The notes under the pieces were generated by a model. It had not been told where the DNA came from, did not search any database, and was given only the letters and a program-made list of their open reading frames with translations. 64,000 nucleotides of DNA from a virus. Positions 5,646 to 60,495 of this stretch are shown one piece after another. The DNA lies in UHGV virus genome UHGV-0125682; one strand, given 5' to 3'. The stretch's first letter is position 1. Each line of letters opens with the position of its first letter. Both the position numbers and the translations under genes were made by a program.

Positions 5646-7328
5646 ATGGCAACGAAAGACAAAAACAAAGGCTTTCTGTCGGCATTGAAGAAAGCCTTCA
5701 ACAGTGGCGATGTCACGCCTGCCGATCCGGTCGTTTTTACGAGCGGTCATAGTGTCGTTGCGCGTTCTGGTCTGTCCGCTTTACGTCCGGGGATACTGGG
5801 TGGCAATAGCGATGGCATGACAAGCGCGGCAGATACAGTATCAATTTCGGCAGAACTGCCCGGCGACCGCCTGCAAAAGTACAACATCCTGGAAACGATG
5901 GCTAAAAGCCCGACTATCTCGACGGCTTTAAATATTCACATTGCACATGCGCTTGCGCCTTCAAAAAAAACCGGACAAGCATTCATCCTTTCGCCAAAGG
6001 ATGGTTCCGATGCCGAGGCAGTAAGTAGATGTGAAGAGTTAACCGCTGATTTGGGGACGATGATTAATGACGGACTTCCTTCATGGGCCATGATTATGGC
6101 GATCTTTGGGGTGTCTTATGTCCGACCTTATGCTGAACAGGGCAGGGGGATAACAGGCATTGAGTCCAGTTATTACACTCTGCCACACTTCGTCCAGGAG
6201 TTTTATCGTGGTAGCCAGCTGGTAGGTTTCAGTGGTGATTACATTCTGGATACGCATAGTTTGCGCAGAGTAATAACCGAACCGTGGAATCTGGTTTCCA
6301 TGAAAAATCCCTATTGGACGCCACAGCATAAAGTTATTCCGGTTAGCTACGGCACAAAAGGGTACTCACTGTTAAGTGATCAGGCTGATAAGCCGTTAAT
6401 GGAGACGCAGAATTACGGAACTTCATTCCTGGAATACAGCTATGAACCTTACCTTAATTTATGTGCTTCGCTCGCCGCGCTGAAATCAACGCGAAATAAT
6501 GCAGCCAAAATTGACCGCCTGATTGCTCTTACGACGAACACACTGGACCCGGTTAATGCGGCGAACTATACGCGTGGCGTCAGCCAGGCATTGAAGCGTC
6601 ATAGTGACCTGGTGGCGCAAAGGTCGATTAATGCCAACGCTATTCCGACTGTGCTTAACCATCTGATACCTGTTATGGGAGACGGGAAGAACGGCATCAC
6701 CATTGATACGCAATCCATACCCGCAGATATCAGTGGTATCGAAGACGTTATGTTTCACCTCCGGCAGCTTGCTGCAAGCCTCGGCATTGACGCAACAATG
6801 CTTGGCTGGGCTGATCAGATGAGCGGAGGGCTTGGAGAAGGCGGCTGGCAGCAAACTGCTATCCAGGCTGCATTGCGTGCGAACTGGATCAGACAGGCCG
6901 CCCAGCGAACTATTTATCGGCTTCTGGACATTCACCTCGCTTATAAATACGGCAAGGTTTACACCGAAACAAACCGCCCTTATGACGTGCAATTCAACTC
7001 AATGAACACAGCTATCCAGGAAGAGGAAAACCGAGAACTGGATGCACGCGCCAACTTTGTTGCTGTCATCTCCCAAATTATGGACCAGATCCAGAACAAC
7101 CCGAAACTGGCTGGTAGTGACGCGTTTATGCGTTATCTGTTCACCGAGCAGTTGCACATCGACGATGACACTCTCAACACCATGATCAAAGAGTTTAAGG
7201 CGAATGAATCAGAGCAAAACAGCGAGCATGGTATGTACGAATCCGCGCCGTTGTCGTCCGGTGACGATCCGGAAAACTGGACGCCAGAACAGTTAATAAA
7301 CTTTGCAAAATTTGTGATGAGCAATTAA
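5646..7328 (+). CDS. putative head morphogenesis protein, portal-like by size and position
   Basis: 560-aa ORF followed by coiled-coil protein; assignment by synteny only. Confidence 0.35.
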   Translation: MATKDKNKGFLSALKKAFNSGDVTPADPVVFTSGHSVVARSGLSALRPGILGGNSDGMTSAADTVSISAELPGDRLQKYNILETMAKSPTISTALNIHIAHALAPSKKTGQAFILSPKDGSDAEAVSRCEELTADLGTMINDGLPSWAMIMAIFGVSYVRPYAEQGRGITGIESSYYTLPHFVQEFYRGSQLVGFSGDYILDTHSLRRVITEPWNLVSMKNPYWTPQHKVIPVSYGTKGYSLLSDQADKPLMETQNYGTSFLEYSYEPYLNLCASLAALKSTRNNAAKIDRLIALTTNTLDPVNAANYTRGVSQALKRHSDLVAQRSINANAIPTVLNHLIPVMGDGKNGITIDTQSIPADISGIEDVMFHLRQLAASLGIDATMLGWADQMSGGLGEGGWQQTAIQAALRANWIRQAAQRTIYRLLDIHLAYKYGKVYTETNRPYDVQFNSMNTAIQEEENRELDARANFVAVISQIMDQIQNNPKLAGSDAFMRYLFTEQLHIDDDTLNTMIKEFKANESEQNSEHGMYESAPLSSGDDPENWTPEQLINFAKFVMSN

Positions 7329-7341
7329 CCGGAGGGAAATA

Positions 7342-8340
7342 ATGCAATCACTGAATACTGTTACGGATCGCTTCTCCCTGGTAGAGAAAATCCGCAAACA
7401 CACACCGCAGAACAACCGAAATTACGTCATTCAGTCGGTACGAGACACATTCAACTCGCCAGAAACAAAAGAGCGTATCGCGCTGGGTGAGATGTATGGT
7501 TATTACGGTCATGGTCGCCGGGCGATGCACTATAACAAAACGAAAAGCCTGAACTTGCCGGAAGTCTCTGTTGTGATGGTAGATGGGAAGCCTGTTGTAT
7601 TGGAGAACGTGCCGTCAAACAGGACTATCGACATTTCGATTGACGACAACGGCATTGTTACTCATACGCAGGAAATACTGGATACAGACACCGGGCGTAT
7701 TGTTCAGGGCATGATTAATTCTGGTGCTGGTGGTTGGTCGTGGGCTACATCTGGTCCAGATTCATCGGTATCCCTGGTAAAGTCTTTCCACGGCTTTGAT
7801 TACGTAACTGTGCCTAACTATATCAGCCTCGACAAGAAAAGCCTGATGCTTGAATCAGCAGAAGAGCGCGATGCGGCTATTCATGCAGCACTTATCGAAC
7901 AAGGTTTTACCGATAACGCTGCTACGGATCTGGTTCACCACTTTTCAGCAATGAAAAATCAGCAAGCCATGCTCGAATCTGCACATCGTGAAGCCCTGGA
8001 ATCAGAATTGATGCTCCTTGAAGTGGAAAACATACAGCTTCGAGATAAGCTGCGCGCTCAAACAGCGATGATGGAAAGCCAGGGGGAAAATGCAAAGCAA
8101 TGCCGCCGGATTTTGCGTGACGCTATCCAGGAAATGCCTGTTTTTATCAGCGCAGAACAGCGCCGGGCGCTCTGCCGTATGCAGTCTGAAGATGATGCCC
8201 GCATAGTGGCTGCGATGCTTGAATCTCTTGGGGCAAATGCTACTTATGGCTTACCGGTATCAGGCAAGAAAGAACCAGAGTTATCACCGAAGGAGAACAA
8301 AAACACCACCCCGTTACTCTTCGTTTCCAGAAGGGGGTAA
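7342..8340 (+). CDS. hypothetical protein with C-terminal coiled coil (possible head protease/scaffold)
   Basis: GGAGGG RBS; coiled-coil-rich C-terminal half. Confidence 0.35.
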   Translation: MQSLNTVTDRFSLVEKIRKHTPQNNRNYVIQSVRDTFNSPETKERIALGEMYGYYGHGRRAMHYNKTKSLNLPEVSVVMVDGKPVVLENVPSNRTIDISIDDNGIVTHTQEILDTDTGRIVQGMINSGAGGWSWATSGPDSSVSLVKSFHGFDYVTVPNYISLDKKSLMLESAEERDAAIHAALIEQGFTDNAATDLVHHFSAMKNQQAMLESAHREALESELMLLEVENIQLRDKLRAQTAMMESQGENAKQCRRILRDAIQEMPVFISAEQRRALCRMQSEDDARIVAAMLESLGANATYGLPVSGKKEPELSPKENKNTTPLLFVSRRG

Positions 8341-9503: not shown

Positions 9504-9556
9504 CCTGTGTGTCTACAAAACATCCCAATGATCGGAAAATGCTCGTTCGATGATTT

Positions 9557-9573
9557 GTGTTAGAAAATTAATT
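9557..9573 (-). promoter_or_regulatory. operator-like repeat
   Basis: tgtgttagaaaattaat, with a second partial copy gtttctaaa at 9578..9586. Confidence 0.55.
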
Positions 9574-9641: not shown

Positions 9642-9670
9642 TTGATCTTCCATGTTTTCAGGCTTATATT
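9642..9670 (+). promoter_or_regulatory. sigma70-like promoter for immI-like module 1
   Basis: TTGATC, 17-nt spacer, TATATT, just downstream of operator. Confidence 0.45.
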
Positions 9671-9916
9671 CATGCCGTCGTAGCAAATTCTGCGACCGGG
9701 TTTGACAGCCTGAATACTTACGCGGACAACCGCACATTTCCGATATTGCGGTATTTTTGTGTCCGTAAAACCACGTTACGCCCGAATTATGGTGGGGCGT
9801 GATGGGGAGGCTTCGGCCTGCTGGTTTCGTAAGTGCCAGTCTGTCAACCCTGTCACGTCCTGCCACCTGTTTGACAGCGGGTCGCAGGTTGTTTATCAAC
9901 TTACGAGGCCGTAACT

Positions 9917-20460: not shown

Positions 20461-20500
20461 TTTATTGCATCTTCCGATACCGTCATCAAACTAATAAAAT

Positions 20501-20518
20501 ATGTTAGAAAACTAATTT
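20501..20518 (-). promoter_or_regulatory. operator-like repeat
   Basis: atgttagaaaactaattt upstream of 20540 gene. Confidence 0.55.
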
Positions 20519-22982: not shown

Positions 22983-23059
22983 GATGGTGTAGCTCAGTAG
23001 GATAGAGCAGCAGCCTTCTAAGCTGTCGGTCGGTGGTTCGAATCCACCCACCATCGCCA
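22983..23059 (+). tRNA. tRNA-Arg (anticodon UCU)
   Basis: Manual cloverleaf fold: 7-bp acceptor GATGGTG/CACCATC, TTCGAAT T-loop, anticodon loop CTTCTAA, encoded CCA. Confidence 0.85.
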
Positions 23060-23061
23060 AT

Positions 23062-23137
23062 GCCGGTTTAGCTCAGTTGGTAGAGCGCCTGCCTTGTAAG
23101 CAGGATGTCAGCGGTTCGAGTCCGTTAACCGGCACCA
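23062..23137 (+). tRNA. tRNA-Thr (anticodon UGU)
   Basis: Manual fold: acceptor GCCGGTT/AACCGGC, anticodon loop CTTGTAA, T-arm AGCGG-TTCGAGT-CCGTT, CCA. Confidence 0.85.
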
Positions 23138-24974: not shown

Positions 24975-25050
24975 GGCCCTTTAGCTCAGTGGTTAGAGCT
25001 GGCGACTCATAATCGCACGGTCACCGGTTCAAGTCCGGTAGGGGCCACCA
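24975..25050 (+). tRNA. tRNA-Met or tRNA-Ile2 (anticodon CAU)
   Basis: Manual fold: acceptor GGCCCTT/AGGGGCC, anticodon loop CTCATAA, T-arm ACCGG-TTCAAGT-CCGGT, CCA. Confidence 0.8.
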
Positions 25051-26485: not shown

Positions 26486-26505
26486 AATTAATTTTCTAAT
26501 ATAAC
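26486..26505 (+). promoter_or_regulatory. operator-like repeat (variant TTTTCTAAT) with inverted half-copy at 26471..26480
   Basis: gtgttagatg ... aattaattttctaatataac. Confidence 0.45.
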
Positions 26506-26579: not shown

Positions 26580-26972
26580 ATGGAGCATATCAGCAGCGCA
26601 GAAATTGCGGATATCATGATTAGGGCTGACTGCTATCTGACAGTCACCGAAATCACCACTCTAGCTAAAGAAAAATATCCTCACCTTCATGTTTCACGCG
26701 TAAGTGTAACCAACATCATTCGGCATTTTGTGCGGTCAAGCCGAGCTATTTGTGAGCTTGATGATCGTGTTTACCCACGGAAATACTGGTTGCATGGCCT
26801 GAACGGATATCAGTTCAAGGTGCGCGGGCGCACGCCTGAATACGGTAGCTTACTGGTTAAAAACTGTAGCAGGAAATCAGTCGAACAGGCGCGAAAAGAG
26901 CAACGAGAGCTGGTGGACATGGCGAATAAGCTGTGGAATGCCGCCGTTAAAAAGCGTGGTGTTGCTTTATGA
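26580..26972 (+). CDS. hypothetical protein, possible late-gene activator (Lpa position upstream of pacA)
   Basis: Position only; stop overlaps pacA start. Confidence 0.35.
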   Translation: MEHISSAEIADIMIRADCYLTVTEITTLAKEKYPHLHVSRVSVTNIIRHFVRSSRAICELDDRVYPRKYWLHGLNGYQFKVRGRTPEYGSLLVKNCSRKSVEQARKEQRELVDMANKLWNAAVKKRGVAL

Positions 26973-29869: not shown

Positions 29870-30907
29870 TTACCAGAGCTTCGCGGCGTACTGCGTTTGG
29901 GGGAATGTGTATCCGTAACGTTCTTCGATTGCTTTGCCGTATTTTTTACGAGCTTCATTCAGTTTAATGCCGGTCAGGTCGTCTCCAGAGGCCATCATTA
30001 CGTCTAACAATTCCAGATCCATTTTATCCAACCTTGCCATTGCTTCACGTGATGTACGTATCTTACGCTCAATGATATGGCGAATAGCCGGATCGGCATC
30101 CTCCAGCATCTTAGCGGATTTCTGCTTAAGGCTTTCATTGCGAATATCGATGTTCCTTAAGATGTACGACTTCGCAACGTAGCTTGGCTGGTGTTTTTCC
30201 AGGTCACGAACACGATATAAGTTAAAATCGCCGAGAAGGCTGCATGGTACCGATTCGACGCCAGAATAAATTGTAATGCTCCGGCGTTCACCAACATTAT
30301 TGACAACGGGGATCGTTGTCTTCGGTAGTCTTGCGAAAACCAATGCGCCATGTGCGCCAACTCTAAAGCGAGAAAGGGCATTGCTGCCTTCGATGTTTGT
30401 TGTCAGCACAACATCTGTATATGCCTCTTTACGCGCCCGGTAGATCTCGCCTTCAGGCTCAGCTTCAAAGAAGCGCTGTTCTTCTTCAAGAGCACCTACG
30501 ATTTGAGAAAAAACCCTATTTTTCAGGCTTTTCTTTATGATTTTGTCGTATTTTTTTAGCAATTGTTCACGTGTAAATGTACGTGTTGTTGTAGCGCTTT
30601 GCACAACGACATGCGTGCTTTGATTGGTGTCCTCAATGATGAATGGGATCGGAGAATATACAGACTCAACAATGTTCGACGCTTTGCCGTCGGCATCGCG
30701 GCACATGTCAACGAAGGCTTTCCATTCAGCAAGACATTTTTCAGCTTCTTCTAATATGTTTTGGTCATGCGTTAATGCAACATGGCGGAATTCCTCGCCA
30801 GCATAACTGGTATCATGGAAAACAGAGTTTGCGACCACCAGCTCTTTCCACCGTTCAGCGGTTTGCAGGAACCGTTTGTACTCTTTCTCGATCGACTTCT
30901 TACTCAT
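29870..30907 (-). CDS. hypothetical protein in the P1 c1-equivalent position (candidate immunity repressor)
   Basis: Only gene between pacB and the rox-like site; operator copy 14 bp upstream of its start. Confidence 0.4.
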   Translation of the reverse strand: MSKKSIEKEYKRFLQTAERWKELVVANSVFHDTSYAGEEFRHVALTHDQNILEEAEKCLAEWKAFVDMCRDADGKASNIVESVYSPIPFIIEDTNQSTHVVVQSATTTRTFTREQLLKKYDKIIKKSLKNRVFSQIVGALEEEQRFFEAEPEGEIYRARKEAYTDVVLTTNIEGSNALSRFRVGAHGALVFARLPKTTIPVVNNVGERRSITIYSGVESVPCSLLGDFNLYRVRDLEKHQPSYVAKSYILRNIDIRNESLKQKSAKMLEDADPAIRHIIERKIRTSREAMARLDKMDLELLDVMMASGDDLTGIKLNEARKKYGKAIEERYGYTFPQTQYAAKLW

Positions 30908-30920
30908 TATTCCTACTCGA

Positions 30921-30940
30921 TTTAGTTTTCTAACATAAAA
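30921..30940 (+). promoter_or_regulatory. operator-like repeat
   Basis: tttagttttctaacataaaa. Confidence 0.55.
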
Positions 30941-32330: not shown

Positions 32331-32349
32331 ATTAAATTTCTAACACATC
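32331..32349 (+). promoter_or_regulatory. operator-like repeat
   Basis: attaaatttctaacacatc upstream of 32404 operon. Confidence 0.55.
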
Positions 32350-48656: not shown

Positions 48657-48845
48657 AATTTCCCCAGCATCGTGACGAAAAACATCAGCACGGCAAAAAG
48701 CTCAATACCTAATTCAAGTAGCGCCAACGCCCCGAAAAAAAACACATAGAACAGGCCAATCTCATTCACAGATGGCTGGTGGATCGCACTTAAAGCTATA
48801 AGCATCATGTCCTCCAAACATTTATCAGTGATGATATTAATGTTT

Positions 48846-48865
48846 TGTGTTAGAAAATCAATTTT
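48846..48865 (-). promoter_or_regulatory. operator-like repeat
   Basis: tgtgttagaaaatcaatttt upstream of ref-like gene. Confidence 0.55.
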
Positions 48866-50003: not shown

Positions 50004-50315
50004 AACACTGACTGTTGCGCCCTGGCATTATCGTGGGGTATATTTCTACGGCACCTTAGAAAAACGGGTGCCGGGATTGGAACCCCGGATAATGCAAAAG
50101 GCGACACAGACGCCGAAAGCGTCTTTTTTTGTGTCATGCCATCGCACAGCCATACGTAGCGTTTAGCTCAGAGATCAATGGTAGTGCTGGCTGGGCTGCC
50201 GAAAGGCAGGCCGGTTCCCTTTTGCGCCGGTAGTTCCAACCCAGTCAGTGCTACCGCCATTGAGATTGGAACCTCACGCGGTAGCTCCTTAAATTAGCAA
50301 AAGGAGGCTGCCAAT

Positions 50316-50531
50316 ATGGCTACTATCCCTACCCCAACTCATTCTGAATTTATCTGGCGTTTCTATTCCTGCCAAAAACACCTGTATATCTGCGTCATGG
50401 CTGCTACCGAAGCAGAAGCTCGTTCATACCTTCCTGAAGAACCCTGCATTTTTGCCGCACGCTTCACTCTTGATGCGATGGAGATCCTAAATTACTGGAA
50501 TCTGCCAATGAACTGCGTGGAGGTGCACTGA
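50316..50531 (+). CDS. Icd-like small protein, copy 2
   Basis: Paralog of 9917..10141; AAAGGAGG RBS. Confidence 0.5.
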   Translation: MATIPTPTHSEFIWRFYSCQKHLYICVMAATEAEARSYLPEEPCIFAARFTLDAMEILNYWNLPMNCVEVH

Positions 50532-51472
50532 TGAATCTGTCCATCTCTCAAAAAGCGACAATGACCAGTATTGAGATCGCGGAACTGGTAGGTAAGCGTC
50601 ATGATAATGTGAAGCGTACCATTGAAGTATTAACTAAAGGTGGTGTCATTCAATTTCCTCAAATTGAGGAAATTGAAAATAAACAATCAGTTGGCCCTCG
50701 TCGATTTTCCAAGGCTTACATATTTGAAGGCGAACAAGGAAAACGAGACAGCATCATTGTCGTCGCGCAGCTCTCTCCGGAATTCACCGCCCGGCTGGTG
50801 GACCGCTGGCGCGAACTGGAGAATGCCCGGGTACAGTTAAAATCAAAAGCCGAAATTCTGGCTGAAATGGCGCAAATGCATCTTGAGCATGAACGCCGGA
50901 TCAACGCCGTAAATGCCCAGGTAGCCGAGGTATCAGCACAAGTATCGATGGTCGCTGAAACACTCGAGCAAATAAAGAAAGGCAATATTCCGGAAGGCTA
51001 CATTGGCTACCGCCAGCTGGCGGCGAAATGTGGCCTGACTGAAGCCAAATGTCGCAACCTGGTTAACGCTTTCCGGATTCCCACCGATACGCATGAGTTT
51101 TTAACTCCAGATGGTTTGCTTGCGCGACGCTCCATTGTGGCCCTGGTCCCCTTCCGGAAAGCCTTTAAGCAGGTGATGTCGGAGGCAGAACCACGCAATA
51201 AACGCTGGTATCATCCAAAGATGGGGATGTTTCAGGCAATCCACCATCCTGTGCCTGAAAGCCCAAAGGATAATCTGTCACTACATACCGTCAGAGAGAA
51301 GATCAGGACTGGATACGCAACAGTGTGTCGTCGTTCTTCCTGGCCTGAAGGTATATGGGTGTGGCCCGAAGGTGGATCACGAAAGCACTGTCGCACCATC
51401 CGTGACGGGAAAATCCATGCTATTGATTTAGCTCCAGAGGATGTTATTGCTATGGACTGGATTGTTAGTTAA
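50531..51472 (+). CDS. antirepressor-like protein (Rha/Ant-type) with fused C-terminal domain
   Basis: Paralog of 10141..10848 plus C-terminal region matching 10845..11045. Confidence 0.7.
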   Translation: MNLSISQKATMTSIEIAELVGKRHDNVKRTIEVLTKGGVIQFPQIEEIENKQSVGPRRFSKAYIFEGEQGKRDSIIVVAQLSPEFTARLVDRWRELENARVQLKSKAEILAEMAQMHLEHERRINAVNAQVAEVSAQVSMVAETLEQIKKGNIPEGYIGYRQLAAKCGLTEAKCRNLVNAFRIPTDTHEFLTPDGLLARRSIVALVPFRKAFKQVMSEAEPRNKRWYHPKMGMFQAIHHPVPESPKDNLSLHTVREKIRTGYATVCRRSSWPEGIWVWPEGGSRKHCRTIRDGKIHAIDLAPEDVIAMDWIVS

Positions 51473-51478
51473 ATGCTG

Positions 51479-51499
51479 CATCCCCGGCGACGCCGGGGA
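51479..51499 (+). terminator. hairpin terminator
   Basis: atccccggcgacgccggggat hairpin; weak T tract. Confidence 0.5.
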
Positions 51500-51531
51500 T
51501 TTAACTGCCAAATAATCGGATTATCCGCACG

Positions 51532-51843
51532 ATGAAAAAAATAGATTTCACTTATTCTGCCGCCACACTTGAGCGGCGCTTCACCCTCATTAGAGAGTTG
51601 GAACTGTCAAAAGTCTGGTATCAAATCCTACTGGATGAAGAGTTTTCACTGATGGTTATAGCAGAAAAATTGGCTATGCCTAATGATCGGCACAAGGTCA
51701 TAGCCAGCCTCGATCTGGTGACAAACAGATACTGGGAAACAGAGGAACTACATGAGGCGGGAGTAATTCGTGACCTGATGGAGAATTCCGTTCCCCGCCG
51801 CTATCGTGCAGGGAACGGCATCTCCGTGGTTAAAGGTGTTTAA
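51532..51843 (+). CDS. hypothetical protein
   Basis: ORF. Confidence 0.45.
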   Translation: MKKIDFTYSAATLERRFTLIRELELSKVWYQILLDEEFSLMVIAEKLAMPNDRHKVIASLDLVTNRYWETEELHEAGVIRDLMENSVPRRYRAGNGISVVKGV

Positions 51844-52232
51844 AGCTCACCTGCGCGCTGTTTTTCAAGCACAGATTTAACATTTGGCGCTTTCCCTTTA
51901 AAAGAATGGAAAGTGCCACATTTTTCTGTTTTAACCTCGCGCAGAGCTTCGCCATCGGCGTTCTGCCATTGATGGGATAATGTCATATCACCGCGAGAAG
52001 GAACATCCAGCGAGTACAGCGTGTAAGTTCCCCCCATCTCCGCATACTCCTGGAACACATAGCTCATTACGTCAGATTCAGTTTTTCGGTGTGCGTTATC
52101 AACCTTATTCCCATTCAGAAATATGGCATCTGGATAGATTTTTATATCAAACCTACCGCACTTAACTTGTAAATTTCCGGCGCTCGCGATCAAAGGGAAA
52201 GACGCCAGTAAAGCAATAGCCAATCTTTTCAA
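51840..52232 (-). CDS. secreted protein (signal peptide, ASA cleavage site)
   Basis: MKRLAIALLASFPLIASA signal. Confidence 0.5.
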   Translation of the reverse strand: MKRLAIALLASFPLIASAGNLQVKCGRFDIKIYPDAIFLNGNKVDNAHRKTESDVMSYVFQEYAEMGGTYTLYSLDVPSRGDMTLSHQWQNADGEALREVKTEKCGTFHSFKGKAPNVKSVLEKQRAGEL

Positions 52233-52252
52233 TTCTGCCTCCGCTGCGTAAC

Positions 52253-52876
52253 TTATTGCCCGTATTTTTTACACCATTGCTCTGCCATTTGTTTGGCTAA
52301 AGGCCCGGCTACTGCACTGTATTCTGCTGTTTTACTTTGCACACATGAAGCAGATGTTTTTTTATTTCGCTGCTCGGTTAGTTTGCGCTCATAAGCCATC
52401 ATGCTATCGAACCCGGCAATATCACTTTGGCGAAGCATTCCCTTTTTAACCAAAAATTGCTGCCCCTCGGGCACCAGCGCAAGCATAAAAAGTGGTTGTA
52501 ATAACTCACCTAATCCTTGCTGGCGATACACTTCGAATTGCTGCCATCCCTGACTTAATCTGGAAAGAGTATCTTTGGTTGAATAACCTGTTTTTGTTAT
52601 AGCTTTGTCCGTCAGATATGCTGTATATGCAAAAACGCAAAAGTCAGTTTTACCAATAAACTGAGTTCCAACAGGCCGTAATGGAATGCCCTCTCTCTTG
52701 CAAAAGTCCATAATTGCCGCTTGTGAATGATCCCCACCAGCGTTATTCATAACCTGCTGCCCTGCCCTGAATTGTGCAGGTAACGCAGTTGCATTGGCTG
52801 TATTAACAGATACGCATCCCAACATAGCCGCGAGCGCGGTCCCTAAAACCCTTAACTTCACTACACCGTCCTTCAT
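52253..52876 (-). CDS. secreted protein or lipoprotein
   Basis: Signal peptide with MLGC lipobox-like site. Confidence 0.5.
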   Translation of the reverse strand: MKDGVVKLRVLGTALAAMLGCVSVNTANATALPAQFRAGQQVMNNAGGDHSQAAIMDFCKREGIPLRPVGTQFIGKTDFCVFAYTAYLTDKAITKTGYSTKDTLSRLSQGWQQFEVYRQQGLGELLQPLFMLALVPEGQQFLVKKGMLRQSDIAGFDSMMAYERKLTEQRNKKTSASCVQSKTAEYSAVAGPLAKQMAEQWCKKYGQ

Positions 52877-53092
52877 GTAAACAAAATGAAGTTTTATGTT
52901 ACAAAAACAATCAACTACATCAACATGATTTAGGCCAAATTTCGGTCAAAAAATAAAATCCACAAAAAGTGGTTGACACTATTTTGGAAATCACAAACTG
53001 CACATAATCCATCGCGCTAACGGCTCCCGTTGAAGGTTCTTTTGACGATTAACTTTCAGCCGAAGCGCGGTAGGGAGTCATAACGCCAAAGC

Positions 53093-53117
53093 AGGCCGCC
53101 ATGTGCGGCCTTTTTTT
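53093..53117 (+). terminator. intrinsic terminator with no upstream plus-strand CDS
   Basis: aggccgccatgtgcggcct hairpin plus T7. Confidence 0.6.
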
Positions 53118-53144
53118 GTATCCGTCATCCGTGGAGGAAGGACA

Positions 53145-53798
53145 ATGGAAAAGATCGCAATATTCAGCCTGACCACCAGCAAGCCTCAAATGCTCACTGC
53201 AATACTGAAAGACGGTGCTCTCATTATTAACGAAGTAAAACCCCTTCCCGCGTCAGCATTGGAGCAAAAGCAAAAAATTCCTCCAGCCATAGCAGCCCTG
53301 CGGAAAAGCAAATTTAAGGTACTGGTAGACGAAATTACGCCAACGATCTCCGCTGGCACCGGAGCAAGCCAGGTGACTCTCAAGACCCGTCATGCCGATG
53401 GCAGAGCAGCAATCATCGTCGGGATGGAAAGATACAGAGAGTTAAAACTCCAGAAGCTATTATCCCTGCCGCAAAATAACAAAGGTGCTTTCGAAATCCC
53501 CGACTCTATCGTTGATACCGAATACAACGGTAACGGAGAAGAAGTCTACAGGGTGAACTGGCAGGATATCAGGCCGGAGCATATTCTGATGATCCTGTGT
53601 TGCTACGCGACCGTATACCACAACGTTGCCAGTGCGGATTACGTAGAGCAGATGACCGGTACAGTCGATAAAGAGCAAAAAACAGGCATACTCGCTTCGT
53701 TCCTTTCCATTATTGGGCATGAAAAAGTTAAAGCAGGCACCTCCCAGCCAAAGTCACTGGCTGGGAAAGAAGTTGATGAAGATACCGTGATACTTTGA
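53145..53798 (+). CDS. hypothetical protein (start reassigned to MEKIAIF with GGAGGAAGG RBS)
   Basis: ORF; track start 53103 overlaps the terminator. Confidence 0.55.
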   Translation: MEKIAIFSLTTSKPQMLTAILKDGALIINEVKPLPASALEQKQKIPPAIAALRKSKFKVLVDEITPTISAGTGASQVTLKTRHADGRAAIIVGMERYRELKLQKLLSLPQNNKGAFEIPDSIVDTEYNGNGEEVYRVNWQDIRPEHILMILCCYATVYHNVASADYVEQMTGTVDKEQKTGILASFLSIIGHEKVKAGTSQPKSLAGKEVDEDTVIL

Positions 53799-60443: not shown

Positions 60444-60457
60444 AAAATGCACCCATT

Positions 60458-60495
60458 TGTGTTAGATAATTAATATGTATTTTCTAACATAAATG
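60458..60495. promoter_or_regulatory. pair of operator-like repeats
   Basis: tgtgttagataattaat and gtattttctaacataaatg upstream of rdgC-dmt. Confidence 0.55.

Follow-up and report, generated by a model that had tools for sequence, protein, structure and literature searches.

The 64,000-nucleotide virus genome sequence UHGV-0125682, hereafter the window (the whole stretch of DNA analysed), carries two adjacent leftward genes. The initial annotation described their products as a pair of exported proteins, one with a lipobox-like site, and proposed them as candidates for superinfection exclusion by reference to the exported superimmunity (sim) function of phage P1. Two open reading frames (ORFs) on the minus strand, at 52253-52876 and 51840-52232, fill the interval 51840-52876 exactly, and their products are named W207 and W130, respectively. 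We assign the window to an Escherichia coli D6-like phage-plasmid, because the flanks of the two-gene cassette match phage D6 by sequence and the annotated neighbours, namely ref, icd, a Rha/Ant antirepressor gene, a pmgF-like gene, mat, and baseplate and tail genes, agree with such an element. In PLSDB, 131 records of ~90-kb non-mobilizable plasmids from Escherichia, Salmonella and Shigella matched the 1.7 kb around the pair at 96-99.9% identity. L-numbers refer to the loci used for comparison.

Gene starts and export signals

The W207 gene (52253-52876, minus strand), taken as its longest ORF, encodes 207 amino acids from the first ATG, at 52876. The true start is most likely the GTG at 52861, which would give a 202-residue precursor beginning with MKLRVLG, because the ATG is missing from allele L026 (TTT in its place) and the GTG with its Shine-Dalgarno sequence is kept throughout the alleles. 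In the window the Shine-Dalgarno sequence is AAGGA (52869-52873, minus strand), located 7 nt upstream of the GTG; AAGG(A/G) was found at the same distance in all alleles, even where the ATG at 52876 was lost. Read from GTG 52861, W207 begins with MKLRVLGTALAAMLGCVSVNTANA followed by TALPA, with predicted cleavage between NTANA and TALPA. The signal-peptide codons (52790-52861, minus strand) contain a non-conserved lipobox-like LGC, and the predicted mature protein has 178 residues, a mass of 19.8 kDa, a pI of 9.3 and four cysteines. RefSeq often gives W207 as a 165-residue product that starts at Met43 and carries no signal peptide; one such form is WP_001436217.1 (L002 6754-7251 and L004 20754-21251). 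The Met43 start is unlikely to be right, judging from the alignment, because residues upstream of it (L32, P33, G39 and V42) are invariant while Met43 itself is not conserved.

The W130 gene (51840-52232, minus strand) starts with TTG and encodes 130 amino acids. It is separated from the W207 gene by a gap of 20 nt, in which a Shine-Dalgarno sequence GGAGG (52238-52242, minus strand) lies 5 nt before the TTG. By this layout the two genes form a tight two-gene operon. The W130 N-terminus, M/LKRLAIALLASFPLIASA followed by GNLQV (signal-peptide codons 52179-52232, minus strand), has two positive charges, a hydrophobic core of 15 residues and an ASA cleavage site, with predicted cleavage between LIASA and GNLQV. 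The predicted mature protein has 112 residues, a mass of 12.6 kDa and two cysteines.

Signal peptides were judged by simple rules backed by comparative evidence. Under these rules, each N-terminus begins with positive charge and continues with a hydrophobic core of 13-15 residues and an AxA site. Signal-like N-termini, differing in sequence, are retained in homologues at 30-66% identity and still in those as distant as 23-30%, the junctions of natural fusion proteins (described below) match the predicted cleavage site, and the ratio of nonsynonymous to synonymous substitution rates (dN/dS) is 0.07-0.14 for W207 and W130; both genes are under purifying selection. These observations argue that the export signals are more than chance and that both products have Sec signal peptides, in agreement with the initial annotation, which had described both proteins as exported.

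The lipobox-like site noted initially fared differently. AMLGC meets the PROSITE lipobox pattern in the window allele and in several close alleles, and this would fit a receptor-masking or receptor-modifying lipoprotein of the outer membrane, like Cor or Llp in lysogenic conversion, with W130 as a helper. The lipobox cysteine is glycine in L022, L025 and L045 and is absent from distant homologues and fusion proteins, all of which keep the AxA site followed by (A/I)LP. A conserved lipobox with an invariant +1 cysteine, as in bacterial lipoproteins including those of the Cor/Llp type, was not found in the W207 family, so the site is no family feature; moreover, mature W207 is modelled as a globular helical domain with four cysteines. 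The lipoprotein explanation was set aside because the lipobox cysteine is not conserved, and receptor masking of this kind is improbable. As the cysteine varies and the AxA-(A/I)LP junction is kept, W207 is probably a soluble periplasmic protein cut between ANA and T.

Protein families, fusions and alleles

W207 and W130 had no family match in Pfam, NCBIfam or PADLOC, and PHROG matches were limited to 12786 and 13864, both families of unknown function. Both families are tiny: 21 relatives of W207 emerged when 1.84 billion representative proteins were searched with a profile, and a word-indexed profile search gave 18 relatives of W130. Neither protein was found by tblastn in the 50,697 phage records of INPHARED, and a search of genome contigs with the W130 profile gave no match. 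In PLSDB, by comparison, 67 plasmids carried W207 relatives and 86 carried W130 relatives, nearly all of them 80-100 kb and non-mobilizable. Some match to the cassette was present in 105 of 5426 complete E. coli genomes (~2%) and the whole cassette in 38 of the 5426. No paper mentioning these accessions or PHROG identifiers was found in the literature. A lone W207 homologue (P0007, 57% identity) was located at L055 3950-4555 on the conjugative IncF plasmid NZ_OZ039654.1. Its neighbours there are sslE and fragments of a baseplate gene and of a transposase, and it looks like part of a phage-plasmid that was left stranded.

Natural W207::W130 fusions were identified in P0031 (277 amino acids), P0034 (281 amino acids) and ORFs of L028, L029 and L053. 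They consist of a signal peptide, the W207 core, an Ala/Gly/Ser-rich linker in place of the C-terminal ~45 residues of W207, and a W130 domain that has no signal peptide of its own and begins exactly at the predicted W130 cleavage site. The fusions split into two divergent lineages with different linkers. The L053 fusion occupies the same slot as the pair, divergent from mat, on a D6-like plasmid of Enterobacter hormaechei. Because natural fusions join both domains, we infer that W207 and W130 work together as one functional unit, presumably by forming a complex.

Gene arrangements were taken from a hidden Markov model (HMM) scan of all fetched loci. W207 followed by W130 was found in the window and in most D6-like elements. 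Other loci carried W207 with a SimB domain fused to the C-terminal domain of D6 orf79 (L043, L045 and L046), W207 with a 105-residue SimB-like protein and W130 (L013 and L030), or a SimB-like protein with a W207::W130 fusion (L029). The fusion stood alone in L028 and L053, a W130-like gene stood alone in L008, L048-L051 and L054, and remnants of the cassette were left in L005, L009 and L052. W207 alleles shared 53-65% amino-acid identity with saturated dS and were mosaic; for example, the L043 protein joins a window-type signal peptide to a different body. W130 in those elements was 88-97% identical, with most changes in the signal peptide, and dN/dS gave no sign of positive selection. Because W207 diverges deeply while W130 of the same elements barely varies, W207 looks like a variable specificity partner and W130 like a constant one.

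The structure model of W207 is confident and shows an all-helical, globular four-cysteine domain, for which no structural neighbour was found in the PDB or BFVD. The C-terminal hairpin of W207 (residues ~150-205) is the part replaced by the linker in the fusions. W130 was modelled as a generic small beta-barrel. Its fold class is common to the periplasmic inhibitors PliC and MliC, and avidins and proteins with domains of unknown function (DUFs) score as well or better, so that the resemblance of W130 to PliC/MliC lysozyme inhibitors and other small periplasmic beta-barrel binders is one of fold class only. Cysteine pairs are conserved in both families.

The predicted periplasmic location and the conserved cysteine pairs of both proteins are also what would be seen in an orphan inhibitor or immunity module that protects the host against lysozymes or transglycosylases, peptidoglycan effectors from a type VI secretion system (T6SS) or colicins and thereby raises host fitness. 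Of five P1-like plasmids, three have a W130-like singleton beside Hcp and one has it beside a Tlde1 effector. However, the conserved partner of Tlde1 is a membrane protein of ~90 amino acids, the Tlde1-membrane protein-Hcp arrangement is found in Pantoea without a W130-like gene, and W130-like genes are found without Tlde1. The pair also had no match to the MliC/PliC family profile of Pfam (PF09864), and the family is confined to phage-plasmids, where it is linked to SimB and immI. Protection against such toxins is therefore an unlikely role for the pair.

A narrower form of this idea, in which W130 would be a Tldi-like immunity protein to the T6SS effector Tlde1, was rejected on the evidence of gene neighbourhoods. 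A W130-like gene lies 3 nt upstream of the Tlde1 effector and Hcp in L008, and adjacency to Tlde1 was seen in this locus only; the ~90-residue membrane protein is the conserved neighbour of Tlde1, including in the Pantoea arrangement that has no W130-like gene; and Tlde1 is missing beside the W130-like genes of L048-L051 and of every D6-like element.

P1-like phage-plasmids carry T6SS cargo. The P1-like phage-plasmid contig L008 encodes, at 6001-7711, a Tlde1-domain effector (Pfam, 109 bits), the ~90-residue membrane protein, which is likely to be the immunity protein, and Hcp. The same three-gene module was present on a Pantoea megaplasmid (L056), and Hcp genes adjoin W130-like singletons in Enterobacter and Serratia plasmids (L048 4186-4668 and L049 4983-5468).

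The sim slot, its putative regulation and a candidate exclusion role

The pair occupies the slot in which phage D6 has orf80 and the simB-like orf79, between the pmgF-like gene and mat. The genome record of phage D6 (host E. coli C600) contains neither the W207 nor the W130 gene. D6 orf79 (L001 5141-6037), annotated as a 'putative superimmunity accessory function', shares with the pair the slot, the upstream region, the operator-like site described below and the first ~17 codons, and an orf79-like gene comes after the W207 gene in L043, L045 and L046. It differs in its body, made up of a SimB domain and an unrelated C-terminal domain, neither of which is homologous to W207 or W130. Residues 1-20 of orf79 as annotated, VKLMVLGTALAAK..., are what is left of a W207 signal peptide. 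As DNA identity between the window and D6 resumes at window position 52825, the breakpoint of the replacement lies inside the signal-peptide codons, and the real start of orf79 is probably Met22, giving a proper signal peptide MFFIKNGKRFSSTILATVVALFVPTLTFA followed by YDF.

The simA-simB-simC genes of P1, which are non-essential (PMC10695390), resemble the pair in being a small operon of accessory genes for proteins with signal peptides beside a c4-icd-ant immI region. In the window, D6, L045, L030 and L009, the distance between the cassette and a C4/immI module is 1.5-4.5 kb. P1 simABC directly abuts c4 and the C1 operator Oc4, whereas here ant and the pmgF-like gene intervene and the orientation is different. 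A C1 operator stands next to the promoter region in P1 (Oc4/PsimA), as does the operator-like motif at 52893-52911 here. SimB homologues, found in D6 and in the sister alleles L013, L029, L030, L043, L045 and L046, are interleaved with, or swapped for, W207 and W130 domains; the HMM scan found none in the operon of the window. In plasmid pSL26_91, simB was described as replaced by hypothetical genes (PMC6799933), and this plasmid (CP032492) has the present pair at ~98% identity. The link to sim, made initially by analogy, is thus backed by comparative evidence from the slot, the association with SimB and the proximity to immI; homology to SimA, SimB or SimC was not found.

A 19-bp pattern, ATTRATTTTCTAACAYAAA, has nine occurrences in the window, where chance would give 0.11. 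Six of them served to derive the pattern and the other three were found independently; all nine are intergenic, just upstream of genes and close to promoters. The sites stand upstream of C4 module 1 (9554-9572), a Lpa homologue (26487-26505; gene at 26580-26972), a C1 repressor homologue (30921-30939; ORF 29870-30907), ref (48844-48862) and, as an inverted pair, rdgC/dmt (60456-60474 and 60475-60493). Sites upstream of two further genes (20498-20516 and 32331-32349) and the cassette site at 52893-52911 complete the list. Because this set of targets mirrors the C1 regulon of P1, D6-like phages most likely use ATTRATTTTCTAACAYAAA as their C1 operator. The C1 operator consensus of P1, from which the motif differs, was absent from the window, and the late-promoter pattern of P1 was neither present nor enriched in it.

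The cassette site, ATTGTTTTTGTAACATAAA (52893-52911, minus strand), has two mismatches to the motif. It is retained in front of D6 orf79 and other alleles, and at a position that is C in all other sites it carries G or A. It overlaps a candidate -10 element, TAACAT (52896-52901). A scan with the sigma-70 consensus detected no promoter in 51400-53300, and only a weak TTGATG-16-TAACAT was recognised by eye. Since the shared motif overlaps the candidate -10, the cassette is probably controlled by C1, perhaps weakly.

An operator-like site common to the early genes lpa, ref and c4 and a place beside mat and the tail and baseplate genes would also suit a pair that serves the lytic cycle of the phage itself, through control of lysis from the periplasm or help with DNA injection or release, early after C1 repression is lifted. 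However, phage D6 has neither gene, and close relatives have swapped or fused the cassette or keep only remnants of it. The pair is not part of a lysis cassette and has no spanin features (no N-terminal transmembrane anchor with a coiled coil and no conserved lipobox), and Sec-exported proteins are unlikely virion components. A function in the lytic cycle is thus quite unlikely. The more specific assignment of the pair as spanins (Rz/Rz1) was rejected, as W207 is globular and helical with a cleavable signal peptide, W130 is a beta-barrel and the genes lie outside any lysis cassette.

A sim-like role in superinfection exclusion is our best guess for the pair, plausible but unproven. It is suggested by the slot, the linkage to SimB, the periplasmic location, the diversity of the alleles and the apparent dispensability of the genes, which follows from their absence from D6 and from the non-essential nature of P1 simABC. 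P1 Sim is reported to stop the entry of superinfecting DNA (cited in PMC8546580).

In the proposed mechanism, the two genes form one operon, probably under the control of the prophage repressor, and their products are soluble, disulfide-containing proteins that reach the periplasm through Sec and work jointly, with W207 as the variable all-helical subunit and W130 as the conserved small beta-barrel subunit. The pair is one allele of a modular, dispensable accessory cassette of P1/D6-like phage-plasmids that sits beside immI and mat and contains SimB homologues in other alleles. The periplasmic complex may bind a component exposed by the incoming phage during DNA injection, so that superinfection would be blocked at the DNA-entry step; W207 would give specificity, and W130 would be the binder or inhibitor module. 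To our knowledge, the DNA-entry block by P1 Sim was described in the 1980s, its mechanism was never worked out, and SimA and SimB have no assigned role. The small Sec-exported helical protein Spackle (Sp) of phage T4 is a periplasmic inhibitor of incoming tail lysozyme, and its likeness to the pair is conceptual.

Several observations weigh against an exclusion role. SimA, SimB, SimC and the domains of orf79 showed no homology to W207 or W130 by BLASTP or by hhalign profile comparison; for SimC, BLASTP gave no significant match and the hhalign probability was 0.1% with the W207 family and 0.3% with the W130 family. In P1, Sim/SimC blocks superinfection after adsorption; SimC is, as far as we know, the only P1 Sim protein with demonstrated exclusion activity, and it has no counterpart here. 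Because the role of SimB in the P1 annotation is only that of a 'putative accessory', linkage to SimB says little about function. Toxin-antitoxin genes, Hcp and Tlde1 modules insert near the slot, which is a general hot spot for cargo, so position alone is unspecific. Tight repression by C1 would leave the operon silent in stable lysogens. Furthermore, the PADLOC-DB defence models gave no match at E values up to 0.1, the structure models were built on shallow alignments of 10-11 sequences, and the signal peptides were assessed by simple rules rather than by SignalP.

A doubtful extension of the exclusion role is that W207, W130, SimB and the C-terminal domain of orf79 can replace one another in a combinatorial periplasmic 'sim toolkit', in which W207 would be the rapidly diversifying subunit that recognises the injection proteins of rival P1/D6-like phages and W130 the constant effector or binder. 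If this were true, phage-plasmids that circulate together would fall into exclusion groups defined by the alleles. At the sim slot of P1/D6-like phage-plasmids, at least four unrelated periplasmic domains (W207, W130, SimB and the orf79 C-terminal domain) are found in shuffled combinations, and the natural fusions, which tell which parts work together, offer a comparative handle on exclusion specificity. If the pair had no exclusion activity, it would merely be another uncharacterised accessory gene pair. E. coli, Salmonella and Shigella commonly carry such phage-plasmids. Related P1-like phage-plasmids have been reported to carry resistance genes such as mcr-1 and blaCTX-M.

Neighbouring genes and other features of the window

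The second immI-like module, downstream of which the initial annotation placed the pair, is real (50174-51472, plus strand; identified from Rfam, ORFs, PHROG and Pfam matches and the D6 annotation), because a second C4 antisense RNA gene (50174-50261, plus strand; Rfam RF01695, 76.7 bits) precedes the icd-like gene (50316-50531, plus strand) and the Rha/Ant antirepressor gene ant (50531-51472, plus strand). An isrK-like RNA at 50051-50129 precedes this C4 copy (50051-50261 together). Two C4 genes, and hence two immI-like modules, are present in the window; the first C4 copy was located by Rfam at 9785-9870, and its module (within 9664-9870) has a c4-a1b1 target element at 9664-9716.

Downstream of the pair, the pmgF-like gene (51532-51843, plus strand) is convergent with W130. 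The stop codons of the two genes overlap by 4 nt (51840-51843), so there is no space for a terminator between them, and their transcripts would collide or overlap as antisense. On the other side, the homologue of the maturation-control gene mat (53145-53798, plus strand) is divergent from W207, and the intergenic region between them contains a GC-rich hairpin followed by a T-run at 53093-53111 (plus strand), just upstream of the mat start codon at 53145.

Toxin-antitoxin pairs insert around the region, which marks the neighbourhood as a cargo hot spot. One close relative differs from the window and L002 by a RelE/HigA toxin-antitoxin pair inserted between mat and the baseplate gene (L004 22636-23207), and further toxin-antitoxin pairs flank the region in D6 and its relatives. 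Elsewhere in the window, three tRNA genes, Arg-TCT, Thr-TGT and Met-CAT, were found at 22983-23137 and 24975-25050.
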